NCBI RefSeq assembly: GCF_016903815.1
Contig: NZ_CP069973.1
Direction: 5' to 3' (one strand)
Length of the DNA stretch: 64,000 nt
Source of the DNA: Escherichia coli
GTDB lineage: Bacteria; Pseudomonadota; Gammaproteobacteria; Enterobacterales; Enterobacteriaceae
The notes beneath the pieces were generated by a model that was given only the letters and a program-made list of their open reading frames with translations, ran no database searches and had not been told where the DNA came from. Shown here one piece after another: positions 11,127 through 58,986 of this stretch. Both the position numbers and the translations under genes were made by a program. Positions within the stretch are counted from its first letter, which is position 1, and each line of letters starts with the position of its first letter.

Positions 11127-11765
11127 GGGAGTTCTACCGCAGGGGCGGGGAACTCCAAGTGATGTCCATCATCGCATCCAGTGCGTCCGGTTTATCCCCG
11201 CTGACGCGGGGAACACGTCAATAGGCGGCGTCCCGTAGCCGTCCCCTTCGGTTTATCCCCGCTGGCGCGGGGAACACGTTGAGGTCGATAAGTACGAACG
11301 GTTTCCCTGCGGTTTATCCCCGCTGGCGCGGGGAACACGATCGCCTGCTCCAGCGTCACTCCCTGCCCCTCGATTTATCCCCGCTGGCGCGGGGAACACT
11401 TCTGATACGTACTGAGGCCGGTTGTGATACGCGATTTATCCCCGCTGGCGCGGGGAACACTAACCCCCAATGAAGTTAATAAAGTCTATGGCCGATTTAT
11501 CCCCGCTGGCGCGGGGAACACATGAGATTAAAATACTCAGTACTCTTACTCGCCGATTTATCCCCGCTGGCGCGGGGAACACCAGCGTGGCGCGATAAAG
11601 CAATGTGTCTGGCTCGATTTATCCCCGCTGGCGCGGGGAACACCAGAGGCAACCGACGCGGATTCAGTAGGAAAGCGATTTATCCCCGCTGGCGCGGGGA
11701 ACACCGATAGACACTTTGCGGTCATTGTCTATTCGGCGATTTATCCCCGCTGGCGCGGGGAACAC
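11127..11765 (-). CRISPR. Type I-E CRISPR array: 10 regular 29-bp repeats plus one degenerate terminal repeat, 10 spacers of 32 bp
   Basis: Plus-strand repeat cggtttatccccgctggcgcggggaacac at 61-bp period. Repeats start ~11188, 11249, 11310, 11371, 11432, 11493, 11554, 11615, 11676, 11737; degenerate repeat ~11127..11155. AT-rich leader on the cas2 side, so transcription runs toward iap. Confidence 0.97.
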
Positions 11766-11861
11766 ACTAAGCATACATAACTGTTTTTAAACAAATTTAT
11801 TCCGCATCAACAATCTACCAACTAAATTAAAACATTTCCTTATTTTTAAAGAACAGATAAC
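11766..11861 (-). promoter_or_regulatory. CRISPR leader (AT-rich) between array and cas2
   Basis: AT-rich stretch abutting the newest repeat. Assigned by position, which matches the leader location described for E. coli I-E arrays. Confidence 0.7.
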
Positions 11862-13071
<1,210 letters not shown>

Positions 13072-13075
<4 letters not shown>

Positions 13076-13722
13076 GCCTCTGCTCCGGGTTTGATCAGCA
13101 TCAGACCACAGCCGAACGCGCGGCTTTTGCCATACCCCTGGCTCAGACGTTGCAGAAATAACCCAGGATCGGTGACCGTAAGCATCCCCGTATAATCCAC
13201 GCTACTGAACTGGATCAGTTGCCGGGAGTTTTCCCGCCGCAGTTGCTGTTGTCGGTAGGCATCGACCGAGGTATCCAGTAGTGTAAAACCGCTTCTTTCC
13301 CCCTGCGCTGCCAGCCAGTCCAGCGCCGCCTGTTGTTGATGCAACCAGACATCACTTCCTTCCACCTGCCCCCTCACCTGCCGTTTCGCCTCCATCAGCA
13401 AGTCGTGGCGTTTGCCCGCTTTACAAATTGTTGGATTCGCCCGCAGGTTGAAACAAAGGGATTGTCCGGTACGCAACTCTGGCGCAAATGGTCGGCATTC
13501 GATGGTGAAAATATCACTTTCCGCCGGGCGTTCCTGCGACAGGACAAAAAAGCGAAACGCCCCCTGGAGTTCTTCCCGACGATAAAGAAATTGCCTTTCT
13601 TTGCCGCCAGGAAAAAGATCCCACAGCCACTGATGCATTACATATTCACCGCGACCCACCAAATGCAGCAACTGCGCAGGCAAAAGCTGGCCGGTATGTA
13701 AGGTTATTCTTGAGAGGTACAT
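13072..13722 (-). CDS. casE: CRISPR pre-crRNA endoribonuclease Cas6e (CasE/Cse3)
   Basis: Track ORF 13072..13860 trimmed to internal ATG (MYLSRITLHTGQ...), about 216 aa, with AGGAGG upstream. C-terminal glycine-rich G(F/M)GCGL-type motif. Start choice is inferred. Confidence 0.85.
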
Positions 13723-14450
13723 GGTTCCTCCTTGCTGAGCCACGGCCCCTGATTGATGGTGCGTTCCCCAAACAGCCACTGCTGACGATTTAAAGGAACA
13801 TCCCGGCGACGTAATATTTTGCTCGCGACCAGGCCGTCGTGTTCCCCTTCCCACCAGCATTCATCCTGAAGTTTCGGGAGTGAGACTTTCAGTTCGCGGA
13901 AACTATCCTGATACTGTTGGTATGCGTTACGTAAGACATCAGACGCGTTGCCTTCGAGCAGTAACGGCGCAAGTGGTAACGCCAGCGGATGACTTTTTCG
14001 CCCCAGATAAAGCGGAAAAACCGGATGACGTAAACCGTCCTGCAACTGTTCAAGCCTGTAAGACGCATCGGGGGTTGTTGCCACCGCCACCATCCACCAG
14101 GCATCGGTGTAGTAGTCGCGCCGGGAGATAATCGCGCTCAGAAGATCAGGGGCGCTCAACTCTTCGCGACGGCTGAAATAACGCGCTTTACGCACCTCTT
14201 TTGGCATCTGGACCGTGTGATAATCCCGTGCCCAGCGCGGGTTACGGCTGGCGCAAACCACCAGTGAATAGTGGCGGTTAAACGCGTTTAATCGTTCGGT
14301 ATCATCACGCCGAATCCCTACCCCGGCAGCCAGCAGCCCCAGCAATGCTGAGCGCGAAGGCAGTTCATGGGTATGACGCACTTCGCCGGGGGCATCGACG
14401 CCCCAGGATGCCATTGGCCCATGAAGCTGAAAAATCAAATATTGGCTCAT
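13704..14450 (-). CDS. casD: Cascade subunit Cas5e (CasD)
   Basis: 248-aa ORF at the Cas5 position between cas7 and cas6e; N-terminus (LIFQLHGPMASWG) is Cas5-like. Assigned by family resemblance and position. Confidence 0.85.
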   Translation of the reverse strand: MSQYLIFQLHGPMASWGVDAPGEVRHTHELPSRSALLGLLAAGVGIRRDDTERLNAFNRHYSLVVCASRNPRWARDYHTVQMPKEVRKARYFSRREELSAPDLLSAIISRRDYYTDAWWMVAVATTPDASYRLEQLQDGLRHPVFPLYLGRKSHPLALPLAPLLLEGNASDVLRNAYQQYQDSFRELKVSLPKLQDECWWEGEHDGLVASKILRRRDVPLNRQQWLFGERTINQGPWLSKEEPCTSQE

Positions 14451-14460
14451 TAGCCGCCCC

Positions 14461-15516
14461 TTACGCGCAGATAAAGTCCAGCACGTCCTTCATGCTTCCC
14501 TGTTTGTTCATCACGTCAAAGCTTACGCATTCGGTCTTCTGTTCATAGACCGTATTCATATTTTCGCGAAGCGTTGTAATACGCTGCACCGCCACATCTA
14601 ACTGCCGGGTGCCATTAATGGGTTCATAGAAAGCCGCCGCCAGAGAGCGTGGTTGTTCAGTGCCTTTTTCTGCCAGCGCCCAGGAGGCGTAGGCACGGCT
14701 GGCAAAGCTGTTCTGTTTGCCGGTTGGGGAGACTTTAAGTGCGGCTTCCGTAAAGGCGCGCAAGGTCTGATTAGCTAACGCTTCGTCACCGCCGAGGTTT
14801 TCGACCAGCAGATCTTTATCGATGCAGATATAGGTGTAGAACAGCGCAGAACCGAATCCGGTTTCACCAAGATGCCCGGCACCGGCATCTTCAGAAGCCT
14901 GGCGCAAATCATCAACGGCGGTGAAAAAATCATCTTCGACAATCGTTTCACTGACACCAAATGCATGCGCGACCTGGCAGGCGGCTTCAACATTAAATTC
15001 GGGTTTATTCGCCAGCATACGACCAAACATAGCGATATCTACCGCCATGCGATCTTTACGTAACAAAGCGAGATCTTCCTCTTTTGGCGCGCGCTTTTCT
15101 TCGGCCAGTTGATGGGCCAGCGCTTTTACGGCGTCAAATTCTGCCGGGCTGATATGGACTAGCTGTTCAGTTTCGGCGTTAGTGAGCGGATCTTTTGGTT
15201 TTTTGTCGTTTTTAGCTTTCCCAAGATAATCCGCAATTTTTGCCGCCCATTCGATGGCTTTTTTCTCTTCGATGCCTTTCTCAATCAGGATAGTTGCCGC
15301 CTCACGCGCAATACGCCCACTGCGAATACCAATATGGCCCGCCAGTGCCTGTTCAAAAAGTGCAGAAGTGCGCCACGCACGTTTCAGACTTTGTGAGGAA
15401 ACGCGCAGACGCGTTGCTCCACCCAGTACCACAGTTTTTGGCGCACCGGTGTCATCACGGTTAAGGTTGGCAGCAGGGTAAGCGGTTAACAAATGAAGCT
15501 GAATAAATGTCGTCAT
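14461..15516 (-). CDS. casC: Cascade backbone subunit Cas7e (CasC/Cse4)
   Basis: 351-aa ORF; N-terminus (LHLLTAYPAANLNRDDTGAPKT) resembles E. coli CasC. Confidence 0.9.
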   Translation of the reverse strand: MTTFIQLHLLTAYPAANLNRDDTGAPKTVVLGGATRLRVSSQSLKRAWRTSALFEQALAGHIGIRSGRIAREAATILIEKGIEEKKAIEWAAKIADYLGKAKNDKKPKDPLTNAETEQLVHISPAEFDAVKALAHQLAEEKRAPKEEDLALLRKDRMAVDIAMFGRMLANKPEFNVEAACQVAHAFGVSETIVEDDFFTAVDDLRQASEDAGAGHLGETGFGSALFYTYICIDKDLLVENLGGDEALANQTLRAFTEAALKVSPTGKQNSFASRAYASWALAEKGTEQPRSLAAAFYEPINGTRQLDVAVQRITTLRENMNTVYEQKTECVSFDVMNKQGSMKDVLDFICA

Positions 15517-15530
15517 GAGATAGTCCTTTA

Positions 15531-16067
15531 TTAATTTTGTTCGTTATCGGCGTCGCCAGCCTGGTAATATTCCAGCGCCCAGCGGATACGGATAAATTCT
15601 GTTGGCCGCTGCTGGCGGCGGTGATGATTGAGCAGGTCGTCGCTCTCCTGGCACCAGCGGAAAATATCTTCTGCCAAAGAGATAAGATTGACGGAACCAT
15701 TTAATAATTTGACCGCGCGACGTAACTGACGCAGTAAATCATCAGGCGTTTTTACTGCCGACAGGCGAGTAAAACGCCCCTCCGACATTACCGCCGCCAG
15801 CTGCGCGGCAAAAGGCTGCCGTTCATCAATAGCTTTAACATTGGCGCTAACTGCGGCGACCAGCGCCAGTGCGGTAAAACGCCACTCTTGTGCTTCAATT
15901 TTCCACAAAGTGTGGGTCTGCATCAGCAGAGAACGAAACCCTTCTGACAGACAAACATCATTAACCGTTGTGCTACGCCGCAGACTGGCACGATTGCCGC
16001 GTTTTTCCTGCAACTCTTCGTGCCATTTACGCAGCGTGGCTTTGTGCTCCTCTTTTACAATACTCAT
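15531..16067 (-). CDS. casB: Cascade small subunit Cse2 (CasB)
   Basis: 178-aa ORF between cse1 and cas7. Assigned by position and size; I do not recognise the sequence itself. Confidence 0.8.
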   Translation of the reverse strand: MSIVKEEHKATLRKWHEELQEKRGNRASLRRSTTVNDVCLSEGFRSLLMQTHTLWKIEAQEWRFTALALVAAVSANVKAIDERQPFAAQLAAVMSEGRFTRLSAVKTPDDLLRQLRRAVKLLNGSVNLISLAEDIFRWCQESDDLLNHHRRQQRPTEFIRIRWALEYYQAGDADNEQN

Positions 16068-17626
16068 TCAGCAGCCTCCTGCTTTTTCTCCCTGGCGGCT
16101 TTAGCATTTTGCTTCTCCGCCGATGTTGTAAAATATTTCTTGCGCGCGGTCATGACGCGTTTCAAATCAACGGGCTCATATGGATTGGTGAAGACACGCT
16201 CGTCAAAATCCTGACGCGCGAATAACCAAATTTCCTTTTGCCATTTGCTGAGTAATTCATCCGCATCCTGACCTTCTTCAATGTGGCGCACTAACCTCAG
16301 GAAGCGATGCTGAGTTTTGTTCCAGAAGTCGATATCCACAAAACTGAAATCACCCCGTGCACCTTTTGGATCGGAGAACCACGCTTCTTTCAATGCACTC
16401 CGTAACAGACTCAGAATCCGTGAAGCCGTTTGCGCAGCCAGCCGCAGCTTCGGTATCTGGCCTTCTTTTTTATCGAGCAGCAGCGGAAAATGGTGTTCGT
16501 ACCAACAGCGCGCTTTCATGTTGTCAAAATCATAACCAAATCCCCACAGGCCCACTTTTGCCTGCTTGAGACTGCTGGCATTAAAGAGTTTCACCACCAG
16601 CGCGGGAAGTTCCGTATTGTTTTCTGATTTACCCGTTTCGATAAGGCCTAACCAGTCGCGCCAGATTAAACCGCCTGGTTGTGGTTTGACCGAGTAAAAC
16701 TCGCCGCCCTCTTTAAGGGGTACACGGTAAGGCGTTAAGGGATGCTGCCACATGGCATAATTCGCGCCGTAATTTTTGGTCGTCATCAGGCTCAGGAGCG
16801 CGTCGTTCTGCTCGCCGCAAATATCGCAGTTGCCGACTGTCGTGGTATTAAAATCAATACGAATACGCCGCGGCATTCCCCAGTACGCCTGGAGTTTATT
16901 AACCTGATCATCGGTTACCACCGCACCGGCCAGTTCGCTGGTACGCGTCGGGCCAAGCCAGGGGAAAACCAGATCGTCAAATTTTTTGGGTAGCGGTAAG
17001 TCGGCTTCGTCCTGCGGCATCACATTGAGCCACAGTTTGCGCCACAAGGGCGTTTGTTGATTGCCCTGATATTCCTGTAATTCAATCAGAGTGGTCATCG
17101 GCCCACCGCCGCGTAAACCGGTGCGGTAGCCTTTACCACCTGACGGCGCATTTAACTGTAGGGAGAACAGAGCTAACGCAGAACAATGTGGGCACAGGTA
17201 TTCCGTTACACCACGCTTGATAAAGTGGTCTTTATTAAACTTCGTTGTTTGAGCGCCGGGAATCTCAGGCAGTAGCGAAGCGACCTGAACTTTATCTCCT
17301 GTGAGCGCCTCGAAATCCTGCATAAATGAAGGGGAATCTGGCCCAAACTGGAAAGCGTGTTCTAAGGACAGCAATGCTTCCCGTAGCTTTTCAGATTCCA
17401 GTCCGTCTTCCCAGATATCATCCCAACGACGATGATCTTTTGGCGCAAAGCTGGTTTGTAGTAGCCCCAGCAAAAACTGCCATGCCGCTCCCTGGAGATC
17501 TGCCCGTGGCGCAGCAATATCGACAACATTTTCATCCGCCAGATCGACAGGCGCCAGTTTGCCTGTCGTTCCGTCTTTATAACGAACGGGCAACCACGGG
17601 GTTGTCAGAAGTGAAAACGAGTTCAT
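16064..17626 (-). CDS. casA: Cascade large subunit Cse1 (CasA)
   Basis: Track ORF 16064..17695 trimmed to internal ATG (MNSFSLLTTPWLPVRY...) with GAGAGGA upstream, about 520 aa. Assigned by position and N-terminal resemblance; start uncertain (alternative ATG 6 bp upstream). Confidence 0.82.
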   Translation of the reverse strand: MNSFSLLTTPWLPVRYKDGTTGKLAPVDLADENVVDIAAPRADLQGAAWQFLLGLLQTSFAPKDHRRWDDIWEDGLESEKLREALLSLEHAFQFGPDSPSFMQDFEALTGDKVQVASLLPEIPGAQTTKFNKDHFIKRGVTEYLCPHCSALALFSLQLNAPSGGKGYRTGLRGGGPMTTLIELQEYQGNQQTPLWRKLWLNVMPQDEADLPLPKKFDDLVFPWLGPTRTSELAGAVVTDDQVNKLQAYWGMPRRIRIDFNTTTVGNCDICGEQNDALLSLMTTKNYGANYAMWQHPLTPYRVPLKEGGEFYSVKPQPGGLIWRDWLGLIETGKSENNTELPALVVKLFNASSLKQAKVGLWGFGYDFDNMKARCWYEHHFPLLLDKKEGQIPKLRLAAQTASRILSLLRSALKEAWFSDPKGARGDFSFVDIDFWNKTQHRFLRLVRHIEEGQDADELLSKWQKEIWLFARQDFDERVFTNPYEPVDLKRVMTARKKYFTTSAEKQNAKAAREKKQEAAE

Positions 17627-17723
17627 ACGCATCCTCTCGTAAAAAAGACCATCCCAGGTCGGTTGTCCATCATTCCATCCTTTTCGGTGTATCAACTATT
17701 CAGAGAGCCCTGTCGCAGGCATC

Positions 17724-20423
17724 TCAACCAACCTTGCCAGTCAATCCTTCCATAGCCGAATACCCGCAACTTTCGTCATCGGTAACTAAAATCACGTTTG
17801 CCATCTCCGGATCTTTCCGCTGTTCAATGCACCACTGCCTGAACGCTTCCCCTTCCAGTAAAGAAAACTCATCCCGATGTTTTTTCCACCAGCTTCGACG
17901 CACTCTGACAACGCTCATTTCCCATGCGTGAGCACCGTTGGCATAAGGCTTCACCACACTGGCAATACAGGTAGCCAGCCACAGGGAAACAGACTCCTCC
18001 GCCAGACGTGTCGACAGCTTTTCCGGAAGGTAATCGTTGATATTGGCGGCATAGCCAGGCCTGAAGTTCAGCACAAACTTTTTAGCCATTGCGCGATCGC
18101 AGTAATATTTGCCCACTTGCTCCTGCTCGCTGCGGGCAAATCCTTCCGGCATTACCACGTCCTCACCGTAGACTGATTCAATAAGAAGGCGGGCTGCGTG
18201 TGGCATTTGAATAGCGCCTTGCTCACGCAGTACACGCTGCGTCAGCCAGATTCGTCCATGATCGGGATAGACATATGCACTGTTACGCATGGCACTGCCG
18301 AACCATTCGTCACCTGGAGCGTCGTCCCAGACGGGGGCCAGAATCAGCAATTCAGGAGGGGAACGCTCGTCTTTTCCGTCACGCTTTAACTGACCATTAA
18401 TATCGCGGATATGCCGCTGTAATCGCCCCGCTCGCTGGATCAGCAAATCAACAGGGGCCAGGTCGGAAATCATTTCGTCCATATCGCAATCAACGCTCGA
18501 CTCTAAGACCTGAGTACAAATGAGGACTTTTCCGGCACGCTGTGAGCTATCTTCTTTACCGAAGCGTGCCAGCGTTTCCGTTTCAATTCGCTGGCGATCG
18601 CTAAAAGCAAAGCGGCTATGAAACAGAGAAAGGCTGGAAGCAGGAATGACGCCGCGGGCAAGCAACTGACGATAAACCTTAATAGCGTCATCGACAGAAT
18701 TCCGGATCCAGGCGATGCATTTCCCCTGACTTACTGCCGATTCGATACGCGCAATACATTCTTGTTCGCTATGAAGCCAACCCACGCTCACGCTACGCTC
18801 AACGTCTTTGCGCGTCGCTACCCGGTGTGAATGCACATCGGATTTCGTAACGTGCGTCAGCCAGGGGTAATCATCCTTTTCCAGGAACGGAGCTTCTTGC
18901 TGGCCCTCTGTACCACGCGCAAAGGCAGCAACGAGTTTGTCGCACTGCTGTTGAGATAACGTGGCAGAAAGCAAAATGACGCTGTTTCCGCCACGCGCCT
19001 GCCGCTCGATCAGCCCTTCAAGAATGCATGACATGTAAGCGTCACAGGCATGGATCTCATCAGCCAGCAGGATTTTGTTACTCAGTCCCAGAAGCCGCAG
19101 ATTATTATGTTTGAACGGCATCACAGCCATCATCGCCTGATCCAGCGTGCCGACGCCAATTTCAGCCAGTAGCGCCTTCTTGTTACTGTCGGCAAACCAG
19201 GCCGCACATCCCTGACTGAACGTTTGTTCATCCGGTTCTTCTGACCCGACTAAATCACCGGACCAGAGTGATTCATTAAAGCGGTCCATTAATGTTCGGG
19301 CACTGTGTGCCAGCACCAGGCTGGGGCGGGACTCTGGCGAATAGAAAGCAAGCCAGGTTTTGACCAGTCGATCGTACATGGCATTGGCCGTTGCCATTGT
19401 TGGCAGGCCAAAAAACAAACCCTGCGCTTTACCCGCAGCCATCAACCTGTGCGCCAGGATAAGCGCCGCTTCCGTTTTACCTGCGCCAGTCACATCTTCC
19501 AGAATAAATAACTGTGGCCCTGGCTGGCTGATATCCAGATCCAGCACCTTTTGCTGTAACGGTGTCGGATTCTCAATAAAAGGAAACAGCGTATTAATTC
19601 CGGTGAAAGGCGCGACTTTTGCTTTTAGAGGAAAGACGGTTAAGGCGTTTTGAGCCTGAACTAAAGTTTTCTGCCAGTAACCTTTAATATCCATTGGGTG
19701 TGCGACGCGTGGAAAAAATCGCGTTGACGAACCCGTCCAGTCTGCGAGCACGACGGTTGCAGAGATATACCAGGAAAGGTGTTTTATAAGTTCAATGCCC
19801 TCATCATCATCCCAGAATGCGGGGATCTCTATGAGCGGAAACAGTGGTTTGATTTCAAGAAGAAAATCTCGCGCGGCAGCTTTGTCTTCAGGCAGAAAAT
19901 TATCCAGTTCATCAATACGGTCAGGCGGGCGACCATGATGCCCGGTAGTTATGGGCATCCACATCTCCATCACCCGTTTAAGTTTGCGCGGAGAGAGTGA
20001 AGATGAAGGAAGCAATTCTTCGTATTCACTTAAATAATGATGCCACAGCCAGTAGCCCAGCGTTGAATGAGAGATCTTTTCGTAATTCTTTCTTGCGCCT
20101 TCCGGAACCTTGAGTTGTGGGTGCAGGTAAAGTTGCTGAAAAGAGCGGGCAAATTTTCCAGTATCGTGCCAGCACAATAGCCAGGCGAAAAATTGTGCTG
20201 CCTGCTCCGTATCAGCGAAACCTAGTTGACGAAAATAGTCAGTCAGCCCGAAGCAATTGCTTTTAACCATTAAATAGCCCATCGCGGCTACATCCAGCGA
20301 ATGCCAGCAAAGAAGGTGATAGTCGTCGCCCCCGTCTTTCTCGCCGCGTCGGGTTTTTCCCCAGAAATCAAAAAAAGTCACAATATTTTTATCCTTCAGT
20401 AAACTTAAAGGATATTTACGCAT
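17724..20423 (-). CDS. cas3: CRISPR-associated nuclease/helicase Cas3 (HD nuclease + DExH helicase)
   Basis: 899-aa ORF with N-terminal HD-like region (HSLDVAAMGY), Walker A (GAGKT) and DEIH box; ATG start. Confidence 0.95.
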   Translation of the reverse strand: MRKYPLSLLKDKNIVTFFDFWGKTRRGEKDGGDDYHLLCWHSLDVAAMGYLMVKSNCFGLTDYFRQLGFADTEQAAQFFAWLLCWHDTGKFARSFQQLYLHPQLKVPEGARKNYEKISHSTLGYWLWHHYLSEYEELLPSSSLSPRKLKRVMEMWMPITTGHHGRPPDRIDELDNFLPEDKAAARDFLLEIKPLFPLIEIPAFWDDDEGIELIKHLSWYISATVVLADWTGSSTRFFPRVAHPMDIKGYWQKTLVQAQNALTVFPLKAKVAPFTGINTLFPFIENPTPLQQKVLDLDISQPGPQLFILEDVTGAGKTEAALILAHRLMAAGKAQGLFFGLPTMATANAMYDRLVKTWLAFYSPESRPSLVLAHSARTLMDRFNESLWSGDLVGSEEPDEQTFSQGCAAWFADSNKKALLAEIGVGTLDQAMMAVMPFKHNNLRLLGLSNKILLADEIHACDAYMSCILEGLIERQARGGNSVILLSATLSQQQCDKLVAAFARGTEGQQEAPFLEKDDYPWLTHVTKSDVHSHRVATRKDVERSVSVGWLHSEQECIARIESAVSQGKCIAWIRNSVDDAIKVYRQLLARGVIPASSLSLFHSRFAFSDRQRIETETLARFGKEDSSQRAGKVLICTQVLESSVDCDMDEMISDLAPVDLLIQRAGRLQRHIRDINGQLKRDGKDERSPPELLILAPVWDDAPGDEWFGSAMRNSAYVYPDHGRIWLTQRVLREQGAIQMPHAARLLIESVYGEDVVMPEGFARSEQEQVGKYYCDRAMAKKFVLNFRPGYAANINDYLPEKLSTRLAEESVSLWLATCIASVVKPYANGAHAWEMSVVRVRRSWWKKHRDEFSLLEGEAFRQWCIEQRKDPEMANVILVTDDESCGYSAMEGLTGKVG

Positions 20424-20770: not shown

Positions 20771-21034
20771 GTCTTGCCTCCCTGCAAAGAAGAGACTAAC
20801 ATTCGAATTGCTTAGGTTCGAACGCTGGCCTCAGGTTGATAGAAATATCGCCTGGGGCTTTTGTCCATCTGGAACCTCGCGAATGCTTAACGCCAGACAG
20901 CCTCAAGCACCCAACGCCATTCTATACCTGATAATTCTTCCAGCGGCGTTCACGTTTAAAATCAGGAATGCTGCTCGCAAAATAAAAACGCCCCCATCAT
21001 TTCTGACAGAGGCGTTTAATTTATCCGGCAATAT

Positions 21035-28840: not shown

Positions 28841-29761
<921 letters not shown>

Positions 29762-34378: not shown

Positions 34379-35164
34379 TTAGCGCACTAAATAACCACCA
34401 TCAACCACTAATAAATGTCCGTTGACATAATTCGATGCCGGACTTGCGAGGAATACGGCTGCGCCCATTAAATCCTGAGTATCGCCCCAACGGTTTGCCG
34501 GAATATGATCAAGAACGCGCTGATTGGTTTCTGGATTACTGCGTGTCGCCAGCGTAATATCTGTTGCATAATAGCCAGGGGCAATACCATTTACCTGAAT
34601 ATTATATTGACCTAGTTCATCACAGTAAGCTTTGGTGAATCCGGCAAGAGCATGTTTAGTGGCAGAATATGCAGGTGACCATTGTCCACCTAAGTAAGAG
34701 AATAATGAACAGATATTAATGATTTTACCGCTTTTCTGCGGGATCATAATTTTTGCAGCTTCATAGCTTAACTCGAATGCGGCGGTCAGGTTCACATCAA
34801 TCATCGGGTCCCAGTCGGCACGACCGAAGTCCAGCACCTTATTCAGCTTACAAATACCGGCATTGTTAATCAGAATATCGACGGTACCGAAACGTTCGCA
34901 ACAGGCGGCGATTATCTTCTGCGGCGCTCCTTCTGCGGTGATATCCACCTGCATGAAGTCCACCTCAACACCCTGTTTTTCAATCATTTCCTTTGTTTCG
35001 CCGTTATCTTTAACGAAGCTTGGAATAAAGATATTTGCGCCTGCTTTGGCCAGCGCCATGGCAAATGCCTGGCCTAAACCGCTATTCCCGCCGGTAACAA
35101 TTGCGGTTTTACCTTTCAGGGAGAAAAAATCCATTGAGAGCGCATTGAGAGATTCGATTGACAT
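34379..35164 (-). CDS. ygcW: Short-chain dehydrogenase/reductase YgcW
   Basis: Track ORF 34379..35239 trimmed to MSIESLNALSMDFF..., about 261 aa; SDR motifs TGGNSGLG and YSATKHA. Confidence 0.88.
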   Translation of the reverse strand: MSIESLNALSMDFFSLKGKTAIVTGGNSGLGQAFAMALAKAGANIFIPSFVKDNGETKEMIEKQGVEVDFMQVDITAEGAPQKIIAACCERFGTVDILINNAGICKLNKVLDFGRADWDPMIDVNLTAAFELSYEAAKIMIPQKSGKIINICSLFSYLGGQWSPAYSATKHALAGFTKAYCDELGQYNIQVNGIAPGYYATDITLATRSNPETNQRVLDHIPANRWGDTQDLMGAAVFLASPASNYVNGHLLVVDGGYLVR

Positions 35165-35482
35165 AGTTAGCTCCAATTTCCGTAAGGCAAAAAAAAAGAA
35201 AGGTAACTTCCCCCGCGAGAGGGAAGTTACCTTTCTCATTATCTCTGGTAACTGGAGATAATTTTTATCATAAGGGCATAATCGCTAATGTGATCGTAAT
35301 CACAGTGTGATATTCGAATTGTCAAATAATTTTAAAAAGCAGAAGCGTGATTACTCTCACACAACACCACTGCTTTCCATGTTATTTCTTATTGCAATTA
35401 CTAGAGACCTGAGAAAAGTAATCCACCTGAAAGGGCGGCTTACTTTTCTCTTTTTTTTGTCTATTACAAATGGGAATACGAT

Positions 35483-36760
35483 ATGCAACACAACTCATAT
35501 CGCCGTTGGATAGCCCTCGCGATAATTAGTTTTAGCGGCGGCGTTAGTTTCGACCTGGCTTATTTACGTTATATTTATCAAATTCCCATGGCGAAATTTA
35601 TGGGATTCAGCAATACCGAGATAGGTTTAATAATGAGTACATTTGGTATTGCGGCCATTATTCTTTATGCCCCCAGCGGCGTTATTGCCGATAAATTTTC
35701 ACACCGCAAAATGATTACTTCCGCGATGATCATTACCGGATTACTGGGTCTGTTAATGGCAACATATCCACCGCTGTGGGTAATGCTCTGTATTCAGGTC
35801 GCCTTTGCGATAACCACTATTTTAATGCTGTGGTCGGTGTCGATTAAAGCCGCCTCATTGCTGGGCGATCATAGCGAGCAAGGGAAAATTATGGGCTGGA
35901 TGGAAGGGCTGCGCGGCGTCGGTGTAATGTCGCTGGCGGTGTTTACCATGTGGGTCTTTTCTCGCTTCGCTCCGGATGACAGCGCCAGTCTGAAAACGGT
36001 CATCATCATCTATAGTGTGGTTTACATCTTGTTGGGGATTCTGTGCTGGTTTTTTGTTAGCGATAACAACAATCTGCGCAGTGCCAATAACGAAGAAAAA
36101 CAGTCATTCCAGCTTAGCGACATCCTGGCCGTTTTGCGCATCAGCACCACCTGGTATTGCAGCATGGTGATTTTTGGCGTCTTCACCATCTACGCCATTC
36201 TGAGTTACTCCACCAACTATCTGACCGAAATGTACGGCATGTCGCTGGTGGCGGCGAGCTACATGGGGATTGTGATCAACAAAATCTTCCGCGCGCTGTG
36301 CGGCCCACTTGGCGGCATTATCACCACCTACAGCAAAGTGAAATCCCCTACCCGCGTGATCCAAATCCTTTCCGTACTCGGCTTGCTGGCGTTAACTGCC
36401 CTGCTCGTCACGAACTCTAACCCGCAATCGGTCGCGATGGGGATTGGCCTGATTTTACTGCTGGGATTCACCTGTTACGCCTCACGCGGGCTGTACTGGG
36501 CCTGCCCTGGCGAAGCGAGAACACCGTCTTACATTATGGGCACCACGGTAGGTATTTGTTCGGTGATTGGATTCCTGCCGGATGTCTTCGTTTACCCGAT
36601 TATCGGCTACTGGCAAGACACCCTGCCCGCTGCAGAAGCCTACCGCAATATGTGGCTGATGGGCATGGCGGCGCTTGCCATGGTGATCGTCTTTACCTTT
36701 TTGCTGTTCCAAAAAATTCGTACTGCTGATAGCGCCCCTGCTATGGCTAGCAGCAAGTAA
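35483..36760 (+). CDS. yqcE: MFS-superfamily transporter YqcE
   Basis: 425-aa multi-pass hydrophobic ORF; ATG start. Confidence 0.85.
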   Translation: MQHNSYRRWIALAIISFSGGVSFDLAYLRYIYQIPMAKFMGFSNTEIGLIMSTFGIAAIILYAPSGVIADKFSHRKMITSAMIITGLLGLLMATYPPLWVMLCIQVAFAITTILMLWSVSIKAASLLGDHSEQGKIMGWMEGLRGVGVMSLAVFTMWVFSRFAPDDSASLKTVIIIYSVVYILLGILCWFFVSDNNNLRSANNEEKQSFQLSDILAVLRISTTWYCSMVIFGVFTIYAILSYSTNYLTEMYGMSLVAASYMGIVINKIFRALCGPLGGIITTYSKVKSPTRVIQILSVLGLLALTALLVTNSNPQSVAMGIGLILLLGFTCYASRGLYWACPGEARTPSYIMGTTVGICSVIGFLPDVFVYPIIGYWQDTLPAAEAYRNMWLMGMAALAMVIVFTFLLFQKIRTADSAPAMASSK

Positions 36761-36786
36761 GTCCAGAAAATTACAGGAGAAAAATC

Positions 36787-38265
36787 ATGTCGAAAAAATA
36801 CATCATAGGGATTGATGGTGGAAGTCAGAGCACAAAAGTGGTGATGTACGATCTGGAAGGTAATGTGGTTTGCGAAGGCAAAGGCTTATTGCAGCCGATG
36901 CACACGCCAGATGCCGATACCGCAGAACATCCTGACGACGATTTATGGGCATCATTATGCTTTGCCGGTCACGATTTGATGAGTCAGTTTGCCGGAAATA
37001 AAGAAGATATTGTCGGTATTGGTCTGGGATCCATCCGTTGCTGCCGTGCGTTATTGAAAGCCGATGGCACGCCAGCTGCGCCGTTGATTAGCTGGCAGGA
37101 TGCACGCGTTACACGCCCTTACGAACATACGAATCCTGACGTGGCATATGTCACCTCTTTTTCGGGTTATCTGACGCATCGCTTAACCGGCGAGTTTAAA
37201 GACAATATCGCCAACTATTTTGGTCAGTGGCCGGTGGATTATAAGACCTGGGCATGGAGTGAAGATGCCGCAGTCATGGAGAAGTTTAATATCCCCCGTC
37301 ATATGCTGTTTGATGTGCAAATGCCGGGCACTGTTCTTGGGCATATCACTCCTCAAGCCGCTCTGGCGACACATTTCCCGGCTGGGCTGCCGGTTGTTTG
37401 TACCACCAGTGATAAACCGGTAGAAGCACTGGGAGCCGGGTTACTGGATGATGAAACTGCGGTAATTTCTCTTGGCACTTACATCGCGTTGATGATGAAC
37501 GGCAAATTACTACCGAAAGATCCGGTAGCGTACTGGCCGATTATGTCTTCTATTCCGCAAACCTTGCTGTATGAAGGTTACGGTATTCGCAAAGGCATGT
37601 GGACGGTGAGCTGGCTACGCGACATGTTAGGCGAGTCGTTAATTCAGGATGCCAAAGCACAGGATCTTTCACCGGAAGATTTGCTCAACAAAAAAGCGTC
37701 TTGTGTGCCGCCAGGCTGTAATGGTCTGATGACGGTGCTGGACTGGCTGACCAATCCGTGGGAACCGTACAAACGCGGGATTATGATTGGCTTTGATTCC
37801 AGCATGGATTACGCATGGATATATCGTTCGATACTGGAAAGCGTGGCGCTGACGCTGAAGAACAATTACGACAATATGTGTAATGAAATGAATCACTTTG
37901 CAAAGCATGTGATCATTACTGGCGGCGGTTCGAACAGCGATCTGTTTATGCAGATTTTTGCCGACGTGTTCAACCTTCCGGCACGCCGTAACGCCATTAA
38001 TGGTTGTGCAAGCCTGGGGGCAGCGATTAATACGGCGGTAGGTCTGGGGCTATACCCGGATTACGCAACGGCTGTCGACAAAATGGTTCGCGTGAAAGAT
38101 ATCTTTATGCCTGTTGAGAGCAACGCCAAACGCTACAACGCGATGAATAAAGGCATTTTCAAGGAGTTAACCAAACATACTGATGTAATCCTGAAAAAAT
38201 CGTATGAAGTGATGCATGGGGAATTGGGGAATGCGGATTCGATCCAGAGCTGGTCGAATGCGTAA
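36787..38265 (+). CDS. ygcE: FGGY-family carbohydrate kinase YgcE
   Basis: 492-aa ORF with N-terminal IGIDGGSQSTK sugar-kinase motif. Coordinates taken from the track; my base count placed the ATG 1 bp earlier. Confidence 0.88.
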   Translation: MSKKYIIGIDGGSQSTKVVMYDLEGNVVCEGKGLLQPMHTPDADTAEHPDDDLWASLCFAGHDLMSQFAGNKEDIVGIGLGSIRCCRALLKADGTPAAPLISWQDARVTRPYEHTNPDVAYVTSFSGYLTHRLTGEFKDNIANYFGQWPVDYKTWAWSEDAAVMEKFNIPRHMLFDVQMPGTVLGHITPQAALATHFPAGLPVVCTTSDKPVEALGAGLLDDETAVISLGTYIALMMNGKLLPKDPVAYWPIMSSIPQTLLYEGYGIRKGMWTVSWLRDMLGESLIQDAKAQDLSPEDLLNKKASCVPPGCNGLMTVLDWLTNPWEPYKRGIMIGFDSSMDYAWIYRSILESVALTLKNNYDNMCNEMNHFAKHVIITGGGSNSDLFMQIFADVFNLPARRNAINGCASLGAAINTAVGLGLYPDYATAVDKMVRVKDIFMPVESNAKRYNAMNKGIFKELTKHTDVILKKSYEVMHGELGNADSIQSWSNA

Positions 38266-38311
38266 GTGAGGAAGACCGGGCGGGAAACTGCCCGGCCTGA
38301 ACATACCTGAA

Positions 38312-38449
38312 TGGTTATCCCCGCTGGCGCGGGGAACATAAGTTCGACAACTTAAAAAATGATAACAAGTCCGGTTTATCCCCGCTGATGCAGGGAACAT
38401 AATAAAAACTTTAACTAGTTCGGTTTATCCCTGTTTTTACAAGGAATAT
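38312..38449 (-). CRISPR. Degenerate CRISPR remnant (three decayed I-E-like repeats)
   Basis: tggttatccccgctggcgcggggaaca (~38312), cggtttatccccgctgatgcagggaacat (~38372), cggtttatccctgtttttacaaggaatat (~38421); irregular spacing; AT-rich sequence follows. Confidence 0.7.
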
Positions 38450-38902
38450 TAACTACACTCGATGTCTTTAGAATAAAAGACAATACGAATCGCACTTTAT
38501 CAATTTTCACTTAAAGTATGAACTGGATATCTTTATTCATAAGAACTATTCATCAACAGCGTATAGAGGCGATTATGTAAAACCACTCATTAGCCTCAAA
38601 ACAAAGACAAATTTCCAGATTTATTACTTAATCAATGAATAACAAGCTTAAAAAATACACTGTTATTCTAAAGAAAAAATTAACAGGCATTAATTAATAT
38701 TAAAAAAATAATATGTTAAAATTTCTTAACGGTTTAAGGATTATACAAATAACACTTTGATTAAATTTGATTTTTTGTATCGATAATTGTGAACTTCTCA
38801 TATATGGAGAGCTATTTTGAACATGAGGTGTTACGTGGATATGTTGCTTAATACGAGTACTGCTAATATAAAAACTTGAGAAAGAGATAACGGGTTATAT
38901 GG

Positions 38903-39236
38903 TGGTTTATTCCCGCTGGTGCGGGGAACTCATCAGTGATATCCAACATTGCGGAGCTAAACGCGGTTTATCCCCGCTGGCGCGGGGAACTCTAATATCC
39001 CTGGCGATAATCAACCGGCTTACTCGGTTTATCCCCGCTGGCGCGGGGAACTCGAGAGCGAGGGGAGATTCCGGCAGGGCGTGCACGGTTTATCCCCGCT
39101 GGCGCGGGGAACTCGCGGGTATGCTCCGCTCCGTGTTCGACAAACTCGGTTTATCCCCGCTGGCGCGGGGAACTCAAGGTCGCGGGGACGCCACGGGCAG
39201 TCAATGTCGGTTTATCCCCGCTGGCGCGGGGAACTC
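38903..39236 (-). CRISPR. Second type I-E CRISPR array: 6 repeats (first degenerate), 5 spacers of 32 bp
   Basis: Repeat cggtttatccccgctggcgcggggaactc at 61-bp period, starting ~38903 (degenerate tggtttattcccgctggtgcggggaactc), 38964, 39025, 39086, 39147, 39208. AT-rich leader on the queE side. Confidence 0.95.
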
Positions 39237-39574
39237 ACTAAACATAACCTATTATTAATTATTGATTTTTTAAGTCAGTCACAATCTACCAACTTAACAG
39301 AAACACACAAACAACACATCCATTATGTTAAAGAGCACTTAATTCATTGATTGAAAAGCCAAATATTTAAAGTAATTCTATACCGACTAAAATCCACCAA
39401 ACTCCGACGTAATAATTTTCACTCCAACGAAAAATTAACGCCACAGAATTTGTAGAAAATGATAATGATTAGTCCAGGATGGGCAAAATGGAGGTTTTTT
39501 AGAGGCGACAAAGAATATAAATGAGTAGAAGTCTTTACAGGTTCCACCCATTTATAACGCTTATAAATGTGTAA
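39237..39574 (-). promoter_or_regulatory. Probable CRISPR leader (AT-rich) for the second array
   Basis: About 340 bp AT-rich between the newest repeat and the queE stop; same repeat orientation as the cas-adjacent array. Confidence 0.55.
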
Positions 39575-40246
39575 TCAGGCAATATTTAAATATTTATGTG
39601 TTTGCATCGACAAACGCCAATTACGCGCAATGCAGGTTTCAATGCACAAACGTGTGGCATCATCCTTTTGGCTAATCGGCTGCAGTGCAATGACTCGCGG
39701 TTTATCATCGGTCAGCGTCGCAAGCAATTCATCCAGTGCTTCGATATCACGTACGCGTCCAACTGGGTGTTTGATTTCGTTAGCTCGCTCCAGGGCTTGC
39801 GACAATACTTCATAACCACCACGCATATTTAGCTTTGGCGACACGGTGACCCAGGTATTCGGCGTACAACGCACTTCATGAGTACCGCTGGTTTCTATCT
39901 GGCAGCTAAAACCGTTCTTTTCGAGCAGGTCAGTCAGTGGCAGCAAATCATGAATGCAAGGCTCACCACCCGTAATCACCACATGCCGCGCGGTGTATCC
40001 CTGGCGACCAATGACAGCCAGCAAGTCTTCACTGCTCGCCGCCCCCCACTTATCACTCTCTTTGGTCTTCGCCAGAATGCTGAAAAGGGAGACTTCCCGA
40101 TCCTCAAGCTTTTCCCAGGTGTGTTTGGTGTCGCACCAGGCACAGCCAACCGGGCATCCCTGTAAACGAATAAAAATGGCGGGGACGCCGGTAAAGTAAC
40201 CCTCACCTTGCAGGGTCTGGAACATCTCGTTAATCGGGTACTGCAT
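39575..40246 (-). CDS. queE: 7-carboxy-7-deazaguanine synthase (radical SAM)
   Basis: 223-aa ORF with radical-SAM Cys motif (CPVGCAWCDT); recognised as QueE (ygcF). Confidence 0.93.
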   Translation of the reverse strand: MQYPINEMFQTLQGEGYFTGVPAIFIRLQGCPVGCAWCDTKHTWEKLEDREVSLFSILAKTKESDKWGAASSEDLLAVIGRQGYTARHVVITGGEPCIHDLLPLTDLLEKNGFSCQIETSGTHEVRCTPNTWVTVSPKLNMRGGYEVLSQALERANEIKHPVGRVRDIEALDELLATLTDDKPRVIALQPISQKDDATRLCIETCIARNWRLSMQTHKYLNIA

Positions 40247-40539
40247 AGCATTCTCTGTGAAGTGGATAATTGTTAATTATTGCAGATCCTGCCACAACAA
40301 TCATGTCTTATTAACATTCTGTTACAGGCAGGTTTAAAGAAAAATGAGAAACAGATCGTTAATAATAAAAGGGAGTAACGTATTATGTCAGAAATAAATA
40401 AAGTAAAGGGATTTAATCATGTCAAAAACATTCACCAAAATTATACTTATTTTTTCTGTGTTCGTTTTTAATTATAACGAATCTCAAATTACCGATGCCG
40501 CCGTCAATTTATTTATCCAGCTTTAATGGGACATTTATA

Positions 40540-41412
40540 ATGCGCTATTTCATACTAATATTCACATTCGTGTGTTCCTTTATTGCAGCCCAACCAACTA
40601 TTGTCCCATCATTACAGCAACAAGTTACGGATCTTACGAGTAGCTTAAACTCACAAGAAAAGAAAGAACTGACGTACAAGTTAGAATCTATTTTCAATAA
40701 TACCCAAGTGCAAATTGCTGTATTAATTGTTCCCACAACCAAAGACGAGACAATTGAAAAATATGCTACACGGGTTTTTGACAATTGGCGTTTAGGAGAT
40801 GCCAAACGTAATGATGGGATACTGATCATTGTTGCCTGGTCGGATCGTACTGTCCGCATCCAGGTAGGTTATGGGCTGGAAGAAAAGGTAACCGATGCTC
40901 TGGCTGGAGATATCATCCGTAGCAACATGATACCCGCATTTAAACAACAAAAATTAGCTCAGGGATTAGAGCTAGCTATAAACGCTTTGAATAACCAACT
41001 CACTTCACAACACCAATATCCGGCTAATCCTTCAGAAATTGAATCAGCGTCTTCCAGTGATCATTATTACTTTGCTATTTTTTGGGTATTTGCAGTGATG
41101 TTCTTCCCTTTCTGGTTTTTTCATCAAGGCAGTAATTTTTGTCGCGCATGTAAAAGCAGTGTCTGTATTTCAGCAATCTATCTTTTAGATTTATTCCTGT
41201 TCTCCGATAAAACTTTTTCCATTGCTGTATTTTTCTTCTTTTTTACTTTCACCACCATTATGGTCTTTACCTGTTTATGTGTACTTCAGAAAAGAGCATC
41301 TGGTAGAAGTTATCATTCAGACAACAGCGGTTCCGCTGGAGGCTCAGATAGCGGCGGCTTCAGCGATGGTGGCGGTTCTTCTGGCGGTGGCGGCGCATCC
41401 GGTCGCTGGTAA
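40540..41412 (+). CDS. ygcG: TPM-domain protein YgcG with TM segments and Gly/Ser-rich C-terminal tail
   Basis: Track ORF 40495..41412 trimmed to [10 protein letters not shown]..., about 290 aa; signal-like N-terminus, F-rich hydrophobic segments, tail [28 protein letters not shown]. Gene visibly low in GC. Confidence 0.8.
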
Positions 41413-41425
41413 CTCCACCATAAAA

Positions 41426-41449
41426 AATGCCAGCCCGAAGGCTGGCATT
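41426..41449 (-). terminator. Rho-independent terminator 3' of eno (also positioned 3' of ygcG)
   Basis: Hairpin aatgccagcc-cgaa-ggctggcatt with a T-run on the minus strand, about 23 nt downstream of the eno stop. Confidence 0.6.
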
Positions 41450-41471
41450 ATCAAATCAGATAAAGTCAGAC

Positions 41472-42785
<1,314 letters not shown>

Positions 42786-42856
42786 TCACTAGTTAAACTG
42801 AAACTCCAGACAAACAACGCGTACCCAGGGTACGCGTTGCCGTTCTAACTTTTTTC

Positions 42857-44509
<1,653 letters not shown>

Positions 44510-58941: not shown

Positions 58942-58986
58942 AAAGCAACCTCAATAAGAAAAACTGCCGCGAAGGATAGCAGGAAT

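Follow-up and report, generated by a model that had tools for sequence, protein, structure and literature searches.

The intergenic region between ygcE and queE in the window examined here (the whole 64,000-nucleotide stretch of Escherichia coli DNA) is, with very little doubt, CRISPR-II, a locus of this species' type I-E CRISPR-Cas system that comprises a working array, CRISPR2.3, with its leader, and a relic, CRISPR2.2. The locus, its division into CRISPR2.2 and CRISPR2.3, the A and T variants of its repeat and the elements of its leader are already known from published work on E. coli. The original prediction of a second type I-E array and a decayed remnant, arranged as described for the species, agrees with this published layout between ygcE and queE. 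CRISPR-II has been defined as the interval between ygcE and ygcF, in which 0.5 kb of DNA parts CRISPR2.2 from CRISPR2.3 (PMC3903273); the layout given in the literature runs from CRISPR2.2 (three repeats, two invariable spacers) through 0.5 kb of AT-rich DNA to CRISPR2.3 and its leader, and the definition of CRISPR2.2 used here follows PMC4489801. Open reading frames (ORFs) and annotation place our region in exactly this interval, which measures 1309 bp. On its left lies ygcE (36787..38265, plus strand), a 492-aa ORF for a carbohydrate kinase of the FGGY family that bears the name ygcE in the annotations of K-12 and of the identical strain 7/2, and on its right queE, also known as ygcF (39575..40246, minus strand), a 223-aa ORF annotated as queE. 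Between them we find three repeats at 38311-38449 with invariable intervening segments, a gap of 453 bp (38450-38902) and a leader, the last conserved across strains. Many E. coli chromosomes give a match of 100% identity, with ygcE, CRISPR and queE annotated under it, and outside the spacers the region aligns nearly base for base with the ygcE-queE region of K-12 MG1655. Rfam returned no CRISPR or other RNA family over the region, either at the gathering threshold or at E<=1, and so offers no confirmation of an RNA family.

The CRISPR2.3 array occupies 38903..39236 on the minus strand and consists of six 29-nt repeats and five spacers, repeating with a period of 61 nt five times over (repeat starts at 38903, 38964, 39025, 39086, 39147 and 39208). 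RefSeq annotates a CRISPR at precisely these coordinates, 38903-39236, in the 100%-identical strain 7/2. Scored against the type I-E repeat consensus of E. coli, CGGTTTATCCCCGCTGRCGCGGGGAACWC (PMC3737337), the window holds 18 matches where chance predicts 0.00. Five of the six CRISPR2.3 repeats are exact copies, CGGTTTATCCCCGCTGGCGCGGGGAACTC on the strand given (GAGTTCCCCGCGCCAGCGGGGATAAACCG in RNA sense), and the sixth, the trailer repeat at 38903-38931, is degenerate at 26/29; the leader-proximal repeat is that at 39208-39236. The repeat is palindromic, with a 7-bp stem and a 4-nt loop on the transcribed strand (-15.1 kcal/mol, z=-3.6). These are canonical type I-E repeats, and their hairpin is the one predicted to be recognised by Cas6e. 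The array of six repeats and five spacers had been proposed from the outset, and its spacers, written out on the plus strand, proved exact to the letter; the crRNA sense is given by their reverse complements. All five differ from one another and are 32 nt long, or 33 if the flanking C is counted. Read from the trailer, they are W1, the oldest (38932..38963; crRNA sense CGTTTAGCTCCGCAATGTTGGATATCACTGAT), W2 (38993..39024; AGTAAGCCGGTTGATTATCGCCAGGGATATTA), W3 (39054..39085; TGCACGCCCTGCCGGAATCTCCCCTCGCTCTC), W4 (39115..39146; AGTTTGTCGAACACGGAGCGGAGCATACCCGC) and W5, the newest and leader-proximal (39176..39207; ACATTGACTGCCCGTGGCGTCCCCGCGACCTT), each on the minus strand. Both arrays of the window are read on the minus strand, and their leaders accordingly lie at higher coordinates. 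A plus-strand description that put the remnant upstream and the leader after the array had the positions right and needs only to be turned round: the leader precedes CRISPR2.3 and the relic lies downstream of it.

The cognate cas genes are found in the same genome. A type I-E operon of eight full-length open ORFs, cas3-cse1-cse2-cas7-cas5-cas6e-cas1-cas2, spans 11862..20423 on the minus strand and is annotated as intact in strain 7/2. The seven genes from cas2 to cse1 each score above the curated cut-off of an NCBIfam type I-E model. For Cas3 the NCBIfam models whose cut-offs are passed are those of the Cas3 core helicase and the HD nuclease domain, which are not specific to type I-E. The start codon of cas3 is at 20423, and CRISPR2.3 begins 18.5 kb from it, close to the 19 kb first estimated. 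Beside the operon lies a second array, CRISPR2.1 (11127..11765, minus strand), which is annotated as a CRISPR in strain 7/2 and by consensus scoring holds ten full repeats spanning 11188-11765 and a degenerate trailer repeat at 11127 (20/29). It resembles CRISPR2.3 in repeat family, 61-nt period, strand, hairpin and a homologous leader in which a conserved 14-mer sits at the same offset, and differs in adjoining the cas genes and in its repeat variant. The contrast first noticed between the two arrays, repeats in ...AACTC at CRISPR2.3 and in ...AACAC in all ten full repeats of the cas-adjacent array, holds throughout, and these endings are the named variants CRISPR-T and CRISPR-A, respectively. 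The seven newest repeats of CRISPR2.1 carry, in addition, a G-to-A change (CGATTTATCC). Both arrays presumably depend on the proteins encoded by this one cas operon.

Leader 2.3 extends from the first repeat to the stop codon of queE (39237..39574, minus strand) and is AT-rich (GC 27-38% across 39250-39600); leader 2.1 runs from the first repeat of its array to the stop codon of cas2 (11766..11861, minus strand). Aligned with each other, the two are collinear, anchored at the repeat edge and built of shared blocks (Smith-Waterman z=3.6), the alignable part of leader 2.3 falling within about 39237-39352; outside the conserved blocks leader 2.1 diverges, and it is 11 nt shorter between them. Leader 2.3 is also near-identical in K-12 and in a B2 strain. 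Judged by this likeness, 39237-39574 and the leader of array 1 are truly homologous, which bears out the expectation that AT-rich, leader-like DNA follows the array at higher coordinates. Both leaders share the 14-mer AGTTGGTAGATTGT, which occurs only twice in 64 kb (39281-39294 and 11810-11823; chance 0.03), both times on the minus strand and at an equal distance, 45-58 nt, from the leader-repeat junction. Mapping of the leader has placed CBS2 at -46..-57 and the IAS at -50..-53 (PMC5224486), and the 14-mer sits at the place of that region, CBS2 with the IAS inside it, on which Cas1-Cas2 is anchored. Variation between strains in leader 2.3 is greatest immediately beyond it, at 39295-39306 (TTTCTGTTAA here, ATACTATAAA in K-12). 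The strict IHF consensus WATCARNNNNTTR matches each leader some 100 nt away from its repeat, at the homologous positions 39340-39352 and 11858-11870, and misses the published repeat-proximal IHF site, for which reason we make no claim for IHF sites. A consensus scan of 38200-39700 gave seven promoter-like sites against an expectation of 4.5 +/- 2.3, which is not above chance, and a scan for terminator-like sites over the same interval gave none.

Should the locus operate by the mechanism established for type I-E in E. coli, a promoter in the leader would drive transcription of pre-crRNA towards lower coordinates, and Cas6e would cleave every repeat hairpin at its 3' base to release crRNAs of 61 nt, in each of which a 32-nt spacer would be flanked by a 5' handle of 8 nt (AUAAACCG) and a 3' handle of 21 nt. 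The crRNAs would then be loaded into Cascade, which would bring in Cas3 wherever matching DNA is accompanied by a PAM, and new spacers would be inserted by Cas1-Cas2 and IHF at the leader-repeat junction with duplication of the first repeat. As in K-12, H-NS probably represses the locus and keeps its expression low.

Evidence that CRISPR2.3 has grown in this polarised manner comes from related arrays in other strains. The array of SCEC020023 reads W1,x1,x2,x3,x3,x4,W2-W5, and those of E-1246 and WP3-W18-ESBL-08 read W1,x1,x2,...,W2,W3,z1,z2, followed by the same leader. All three resemble the present array in W1-W3, the degenerate trailer repeat, the CRISPR-T repeats and the leader, and SCEC020023 shares W4 and W5 as well; at the leader end of E-1246 and WP3, z1 and z2 stand in place of W4 and W5. 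That spacers are shared at the trailer end (W1, W2 and W3) and differ at the leader end implies that they have been added at the 39236/39237 junction, and W4, whose position is taken by other spacers in E-1246 and WP3, is by the same token a lineage-specific acquisition. The three longer arrays keep between W1 and W2 the 5-11 spacers that are missing here, and we conclude that internal units have been lost in this lineage. Some other arrays in E. coli contain W1 but none of W2-W5.

Whether an array of this kind still serves immunity is a separate question, and it is possible, if on balance rather doubtful, that CRISPR2.3 is here a silent fossil, carried clonally and contributing nothing. The search for spacer targets lends this idea some weight, since no protospacer for any of the five spacers was found in the phage, plasmid and IMG/VR records: there was none for W1-W5 in 50,697 phage records (searched with concatenated spacers), none in 72,556 plasmid records, where the sole match came from a 4.9-Mb chromosome mislabelled as a plasmid, and none in IMG/VR (with N at every sixth position). 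In complete E. coli genomes, the matches listed (60 of 326 records) all fall inside annotated CRISPR arrays. All five spacers occur together in 135 complete genomes (at least one of them in 326) and the whole array is at least 99% identical in 133, which argues against ongoing acquisition; even the newest spacer recurs in SCEC020023. Work on E. coli adds that its type I-E cas genes are repressed by H-NS (PMC3497052) and that the role of the system as a barrier is uncertain (PMC4489801). Against a fossil stand the intact components, namely five perfect repeats, a leader with its anchoring block and eight open cas genes, and the differing leader-end spacers of sister lineages, which mean that spacers were still acquired after their split; silence in the laboratory, moreover, reflects regulation and not loss of function. 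We retain the reading of CRISPR2.3 as a working array.

Comparison with two better-known arrangements sets the locus in context. CRISPR-II of K-12 MG1655 has the same flanking genes, orientation, 0.5-kb AT-rich stretch and leader 2.3, and over the relic and the first 200 nt it differs from the window at two positions only, whereas it has no spacer in common with the window and counts six spacers to the window's five. Its CRISPR2.3 repeats are mostly CRISPR-A (...AACAC), and those of the window are all CRISPR-T (...AACTC); at array 1 the pairing is reversed, CRISPR2.1 being of type T with cas-EK in K-12 and of type A with cas genes not of the K-12 type in the window. In B2 strains that lack cas genes, such as APEC E19019, a single array termed 'CRISPR2.2-3' occupies the same site, with leader 2.3 and a terminal repeat resembling the first repeat of the relic (ATGGTTATCC...). 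This array has two repeats and one spacer in APEC E19019, which is without the other two relic repeats (R2 and R3 below) and the 453-bp stretch; its intergenic region measures 473 bp against 1309 bp here.

The relic itself, CRISPR2.2 (38311..38449, minus strand), was identified by consensus scoring, by its hairpins and by its conservation across genomes. It consists of R1 (38311-38339) and R2 (38372-38400), both at 24/29 to the consensus, and R3 (38421-38449), at 18/29 to the consensus and 22/29 to R2, all on the minus strand. A degenerate remnant of three irregularly spaced repeats had been predicted, and the number and the irregularity (61 nt, then 49 nt) both stood; the start required correction by one position, from 38312 to 38311. 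The intervening segments, of 32 nt (38340-38371) and 20 nt (38401-38420), are invariable. Exact scoring against the type I-E consensus sustains R1 and R2 and fails for R3, because a match of 18/29 is at chance level, being expected about 3.6 times per shuffled 64 kb, and R3 alone is not significant. A score of at least 20/29 to R2, on the other hand, is reached within the window by true repeats only, and R3 is recognisable as a repeat solely through its similarity to this neighbour. No feature is given for CRISPR2.2 in the RefSeq annotation of the identical strain 7/2.

Taken as a whole, this evidence leaves us highly confident that the three repeats of CRISPR2.2 form an inert relic, which is fixed in most E. 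coli and varies very little among them. A 195-bp query carrying it (38266-38460) is covered to at least 80% in 4125 of 5426 complete E. coli genomes, with an identity at the best place of at least 95% in nearly all matching genomes. The relic is nearly invariant across five aligned strains. Between its repeats, a 2-nt deletion in a single copy is the only difference when K-12 and three copies from among the most divergent are compared. R1, R2 and R3 all keep a 7-bp hairpin in the minus-strand RNA, in R3 by way of two double (C-G to U-A) changes and one G-U pair. These kept hairpins, together with the wide presence and near invariance of the 195-bp segment, are what prompts the very improbable alternative that the relic is no neutral fossil and has been retained for a function, either as a transcription terminator or an insulator separating ygcE from CRISPR2.3, whose transcripts converge, or as a source of orphan RNAs processed by Cas6e with two invariable AT-rich 'spacers'. 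The five aligned strains vary too little for a test of selection on the hairpin, and their sole stem substitution, in R2 of isolateD, breaks a pair. The compensatory pattern of R3 would also arise fairly often from AT-biased transitions (a rough estimate puts it at about 0.1), and hence we do not claim selection.

The inert relic is followed by the published '0.5 kb', a stretch of AT-rich DNA between CRISPR2.2 and CRISPR2.3 (38450..38902, no strand assigned) with a GC content of 17-33% across 38450-38900. It is present in single copy in 4128 of 5426 genomes, and no feature is annotated within 38450-38902. The suggestion that each array is followed by leader-like DNA fails at this point: these 453 bp are AT-rich and adjoin R3 on the side on which the true leaders lie, and show no significant similarity to leader 2.1 or 2.3. 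Smith-Waterman alignment with leaders 2.3 and 2.1 on both strands gave z values of 2.3, -0.9, -0.2 and -0.5, within the range of shuffles, a leader profile search (nhmmer) gave E=17, and the conserved 14-mer is absent even with one mismatch allowed, including from -45..-58 relative to R3, so that the block at -46..-57 is missing. Local alignment on both strands and the leader profile being without signal, we reject 38450-38902 as a demonstrable leader, and the literature, too, assigns leaders only to CRISPR2.1 and CRISPR2.3.

How the relic and this stretch arose can be told in two ways, neither of which we would put above even odds. The somewhat better placed of them holds that CRISPR2.2 was once an independent array and that the stretch is its leader, decayed beyond recognition, the single-array strains having lost the DNA from R1 to a CRISPR2.3 repeat by recombination between repeats. 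R1-R3 all end in ...A(C/T)AT instead of ...AACTC or ...AACAC, with two more derived bases common to R2 and R3, which gives them the look of a coherent array whose repeats were all copied from a single first repeat; the stretch is AT-rich and lies on the leader side of R3; and the terminal repeat of APEC E19019 joins the left end of R1 (ATGGTTATCC) to a normal right end (AACTC), as recombination of R1 with CRISPR2.3 would give. The alignments and profile search just described, the missing 14-mer and the published leaders of CRISPR2.1 and CRISPR2.3 alone all weigh against such an origin, as does the fact that R3, though leader-proximal, is the most degenerate repeat, the opposite of the usual pattern. 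The other account, which we consider rather unlikely, starts from a single array like that of the 'CRISPR2.2-3' strains, into which foreign AT-rich DNA was inserted near the trailer end; R1 would be the surviving terminal repeat of that array, R2 and R3 being of local making, R3 by a 49-bp tandem duplication of R2 and the tail of its spacer. The lack of leader homology in the stretch is in keeping with such an insertion, single-array strains with an R1-like terminal repeat do exist, 38401-38449 matches 38352-38400 at 34/49, and the 20-nt 'spacer' agrees at 12/20 positions with the end of the spacer before it (P about 0.02). Tandem duplication would also explain the spacing of 49 nt without invoking a 20-nt spacer. 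This duplication signal is weak, however, and the ...AT ending common to R1 and R2 is more simply read as a shared array history. No donor was found, either: E. coli carries the stretch in one copy, neither phage nor true plasmid records contain it, and a search for a mobile-element source of 38338-38902 yielded no phage match and only plasmid matches that are mislabelled chromosomes. Among GTDB species representatives the exact 25-mer of R3 is found only in that of E. coli, a form of matching that would miss diverged copies.

These findings have little importance beyond correct annotation, for which the coordinates of CRISPR2.2 are worth recording given the gap in the RefSeq annotation of an identical strain. 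The five spacers may be of use in typing, as they define a spacer group of about 135 complete genomes that carry all five and 326 that carry at least one. Finally, the longer sister arrays, set beside that of the window, make a clean textbook case of spacer gain at the leader end together with internal loss.

The five-spacer type I-E array CRISPR2.3 (38903-39236) was found, on reading of 37800-40200 and by repeat detection, to comprise six copies of a 29-nt repeat (starts 38903, 38964, 39025, 39086, 39147 and 39208) in a strict 61-nt period, separated by five spacers of 32 nt each. This bears out the six-repeat, five-spacer array of the original prediction, and the five spacer sequences listed there were recovered letter by letter on re-extraction. 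Repeats 2-6 are exact copies of CGGTTTATCCCCGCTGGCGCGGGGAACTC, and the repeat at 38903 matches it at 26 of 29 positions, with three changes. At three or fewer mismatches, the 27-nt repeat core has 18 matches in the window against 0.00 expected from shuffles; ten of these lie in array 1, the cas-adjacent array CRISPR2.1 (11188-11765), whose repeats carry the anticipated ...AACAC ending. The array begins 18.5 kb past the start codon of cas3, near the distance of about 19 kb from the cas operon put forward earlier.

CRISPR2.3 lies between ygcE (36787-38265, plus strand) and queE (39575-40246, minus strand), window open reading frames that agree with annotation. Many E. coli chromosomes match the 3-kb region at 100% identity, and the annotation under the match reads ygcE, a CRISPR and queE. 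Specifically, the annotated strain 7/2 has zero mismatches to 34500-43500 and an annotated CRISPR at exactly 38903-39236, with no feature annotated over the degenerate remnant CRISPR2.2 (38311-38449). The ygcE-queE intergenic region measures 1309 bp in the window and 1372 bp in K-12 MG1655, and the two align almost base for base except in the spacers, of which none is common to both. There are just two differences over the remnant and initial 200 nt, and both a 453-bp AT-rich stretch and the DNA to the right of the array are collinear. The window locus is the published CRISPR-II locus, and the claim that its arrangement is that described for E. coli agrees with both this locus and the MG1655 layout.

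On the plus strand the repeat appears reverse-complemented relative to its canonical form GAGTTCCCCGCGCCAGCGGGGATAAACCG; reading of the arrays thus proceeds along the minus strand, with leaders at higher coordinates. The same polarity is indicated by the degenerate repeat that closes each array on its low-coordinate (trailer) side (38903 in CRISPR2.3 and, as a 20/29 match, 11127 in array 1), by homology of the DNA from 39237 onward to that from 11766 onward, and by related arrays, in which low-coordinate spacers are shared and the high-coordinate end differs. A GC-rich hairpin at 38276-38295 (CCGGGC-GGGAAACT-GCCCGG), 11 nt past the ygcE stop and with a T-run on neither strand, lies where transcripts of ygcE and CRISPR2.3/2.2 would converge; it is kept in K-12 and in a B2 strain, and could be a bidirectional terminator.

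The leader of CRISPR2.3 (39237-39574; GC 27-38% across 39250-39600) aligned to that of array 1 (11766-11900) with a Smith-Waterman score of 31 (dinucleotide shuffles, 20.6 +/- 2.9; z=3.6), collinearly and from a few bases or less from the repeat in both. A five-sequence alignment of leaders 2.1 and 2.3 from the window and from K-12, plus one B2 leader 2.3, revealed common blocks, and the two leader types differ in length by 11 nt. The 14-mer AGTTGGTAGATTGT gives the clearest signal, with exactly two window copies (11810-11823 and 39281-39294, minus strand), each 45-58 nt from its own leader-repeat junction, against a chance expectation of 0.03. Its position in both leaders coincides with CBS2 (-46 to -57), whose centre, at -50 to -53, is termed the integrase anchoring site of Cas1-Cas2 (PMC5224486). 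A profile built from foreign leader-2.3 sequences only placed the array-1 leader as second-best window match, in the right place and strand, at E=0.8, and the homology claim thus rests mainly on the anchored blocks. Strict IHF-consensus matches also occur on the minus strand at 39340-39352 and 11858-11870 (AATCAATGAATTA and AATCAATAAGTTA), at positions that are homologous in the alignment, some 100 nt away from the repeat and not within the repeat-proximal IHF site of the literature; a third lies at 38750-38762, within the AT-rich stretch after the remnant.

That stretch (38450-38902, GC 17-33% across 38450-38900) lies on the leader side of the last remnant repeat, and was considered as a possible homologue of the leaders. 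Its local alignments to both leaders, on both strands, scored within shuffle range (z of 2.3, -0.9, -0.2 and -0.5), the leader profile gave E=17, and no copy of AGTTGGTAGATTGT was found in it, which speaks against such a relationship. Of the AT-rich, leader-like DNA predicted to follow each array, to be checked by aligning the leaders to each other and to K-12, the part from 39237 onward therefore stands as a homologue of the array-1 leader, and 38450-38902 is leader-like in composition and position only. A single-copy sequence, it occurs in 4128 of 5426 complete genomes and has no homologues in phage or in true plasmids.

The remnant consists, as proposed, of three degenerate repeats, R1 (38311-38339), R2 (38372-38400) and R3 (38421-38449, plus-strand coordinates), irregularly spaced at 61 and 49 nt. 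On alignment to the I-E consensus R1 and R2 held up at 24/29 each; R3 by itself did not: shuffled windows attain its 18/29 about 3.6 times each, and the real window does so at eight unrelated sites. R3 nevertheless matches R2 at 22/29, and at least 20/29 to R2 is seen only in genuine repeats; by sequence comparison, it is a true relative. All three end in ...AT rather than ...TC or ...AC, and in minus-strand sense all three fold a 7-bp hairpin, which R3 forms by way of two double changes (C-G to U-A) and one G-U pair. The exact 11-mer CGGTTTATCCC opens R3, in which the hairpin stays in register. The 20-nt segment preceding R3 resembles the tail of the preceding 32-nt segment (12/20, P about 0.02), and R3 with this 'spacer' is identical to R2 with its spacer tail at 34 of 49 positions (38352-38449), such that the 49-nt spacing may represent a 49-bp tandem duplication instead of a short spacer. 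The intergenic region of the B2 strain APEC E19019, 473 bp in all, holds a terminal repeat that is R1-like and ends in a normal ...AACTC, then one spacer, one repeat and leader 2.3. It represents the single 'CRISPR2.2-3' form of the literature, and R1, which 565 bp separate from CRISPR2.3 in the window, thus corresponds to the terminal repeat of such an array. A 195-bp query containing the relic was covered to at least 80% in 4125 of 5426 genomes, with hardly any variation among the most divergent copies aligned, and an outgroup search of GTDB species representatives for exact matches to an R3 25-mer returned E. coli alone.

Related arrays bear on the history of CRISPR2.3. From trailer end to leader, the window spacers W1, W2, W3, W4, W5 correspond to W1, x1, x2, x3, x3, x4, W2, W3, W4, W5 in SCEC020023, to W1, x1, x2, six further spacers, W2, W3, z1, z2 in E-1246, and to W1, x1, x2, nine further spacers, W2, W3, z1, z2 in WP3-W18-ESBL-08. 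Since the latter two have the same leader as the window, with z1 and z2 in place of W4 and W5, W4 and W5 were gained at the 39236/39237 junction once the z1/z2 lineage had split off; later the window lineage lost the units lying between W1 and W2, presumably through repeat-repeat recombination. One spacer occurs twice running in SCEC020023 (ACGATGTATGACCGGAAAACCTCAGACTGGCG; L008, positions 372-1010), a tandem duplication of a repeat-spacer unit, and a two-spacer block is likewise repeated in WP3-W18-ESBL-08 (L010). All five window spacers occur together in 135 genomes and at least one in 326, the whole array being at least 99% identical in 133. No protospacers were found in phage records, in plasmid records (the only match being a mislabelled chromosome) or in IMG/VR with every sixth position free, and among the E. 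coli matches listed (60 of 326 matching records) every one lies within a CRISPR.

Open reading frames are present for all eight type I-E cas genes (11862-20423, minus strand). Seven of the eight products score above the curated cut-off of their own NCBIfam I-E model, and Cas3 exceeds those of the Cas3 core and HD domain models. Within 16064-20423, CasA passes the general I-E model and falls far below the second Cse1/CasA model NF007247 (104 bits, cut-off 576), and Cas3 passes the Cas3-domain models and falls far below the full-length model NF007248 (421, cut-off 569). We take NF007247 and NF007248 to be K-12-type models, in which case the window would carry a non-K-12 cas variant. The repeat endings ...AACAC and ...AACTC mark two named variants, CRISPR-A and CRISPR-T respectively, of the consensus ...GGGGAACWC, and leader-A and a non-K-12 cas variant accompany type-A CRISPR2.1 arrays (PMC3737337). 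The window, with a type-A array 1 and these low scores, accordingly fits the published pairing; its CRISPR2.3 is type T and its array 1 CRISPR-A, whereas in K-12 the repeat-type pairing of the arrays is reversed. Within array 1 (11188-11765) the full repeats fall into two groups, CGGTTTATCC in the oldest three and CGATTTATCC in the seven nearest the leader, which looks like a first-repeat mutation copied into all later repeats during spacer acquisition.

Elsewhere in the window, a hok/sok-type toxin-antitoxin locus (20618-20912) lies between cas3 and cysH, with a sok RNA at 20755-20912 (minus strand; Rfam, 111.7 bits) and a Hok/Gef-family CDS at 20618-20770 (minus strand; strain 7/2 annotation). 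An IS3-family element (annotated IS1397 in strain 7/2; 28353-29710, transposase ORFs 28353-28883 and 28988-29710) sits between ygcP and ygcQ. In the genomes best matching 9001-33000, the query is covered by two pieces whose span exceeds its length by about 1.35 kb, and IS content at ygcP-ygcQ thus varies among otherwise identical strains. A full-length CsrB small RNA gene lies at 58984-59343 (minus strand; RF00018, 382.9 bits), and the small gene yqcG (in K-12, a cell envelope stress response protein; 40385-40526) is a frameshifted pseudogene in the strain 7/2 annotation.

The predicted feature is therefore real, correctly located and correctly interpreted in the main, and is already in the literature in every respect noted; the corrections needed concern polarity and strand, the stretch after the remnant, which lacks leader homology, and a third remnant repeat that is marginal on consensus scoring alone. 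H-NS represses E. coli I-E cas expression (PMC3497052). Evidence of recent activity is limited to the difference between W4/W5 and z1/z2, and the components needed for function are all intact.
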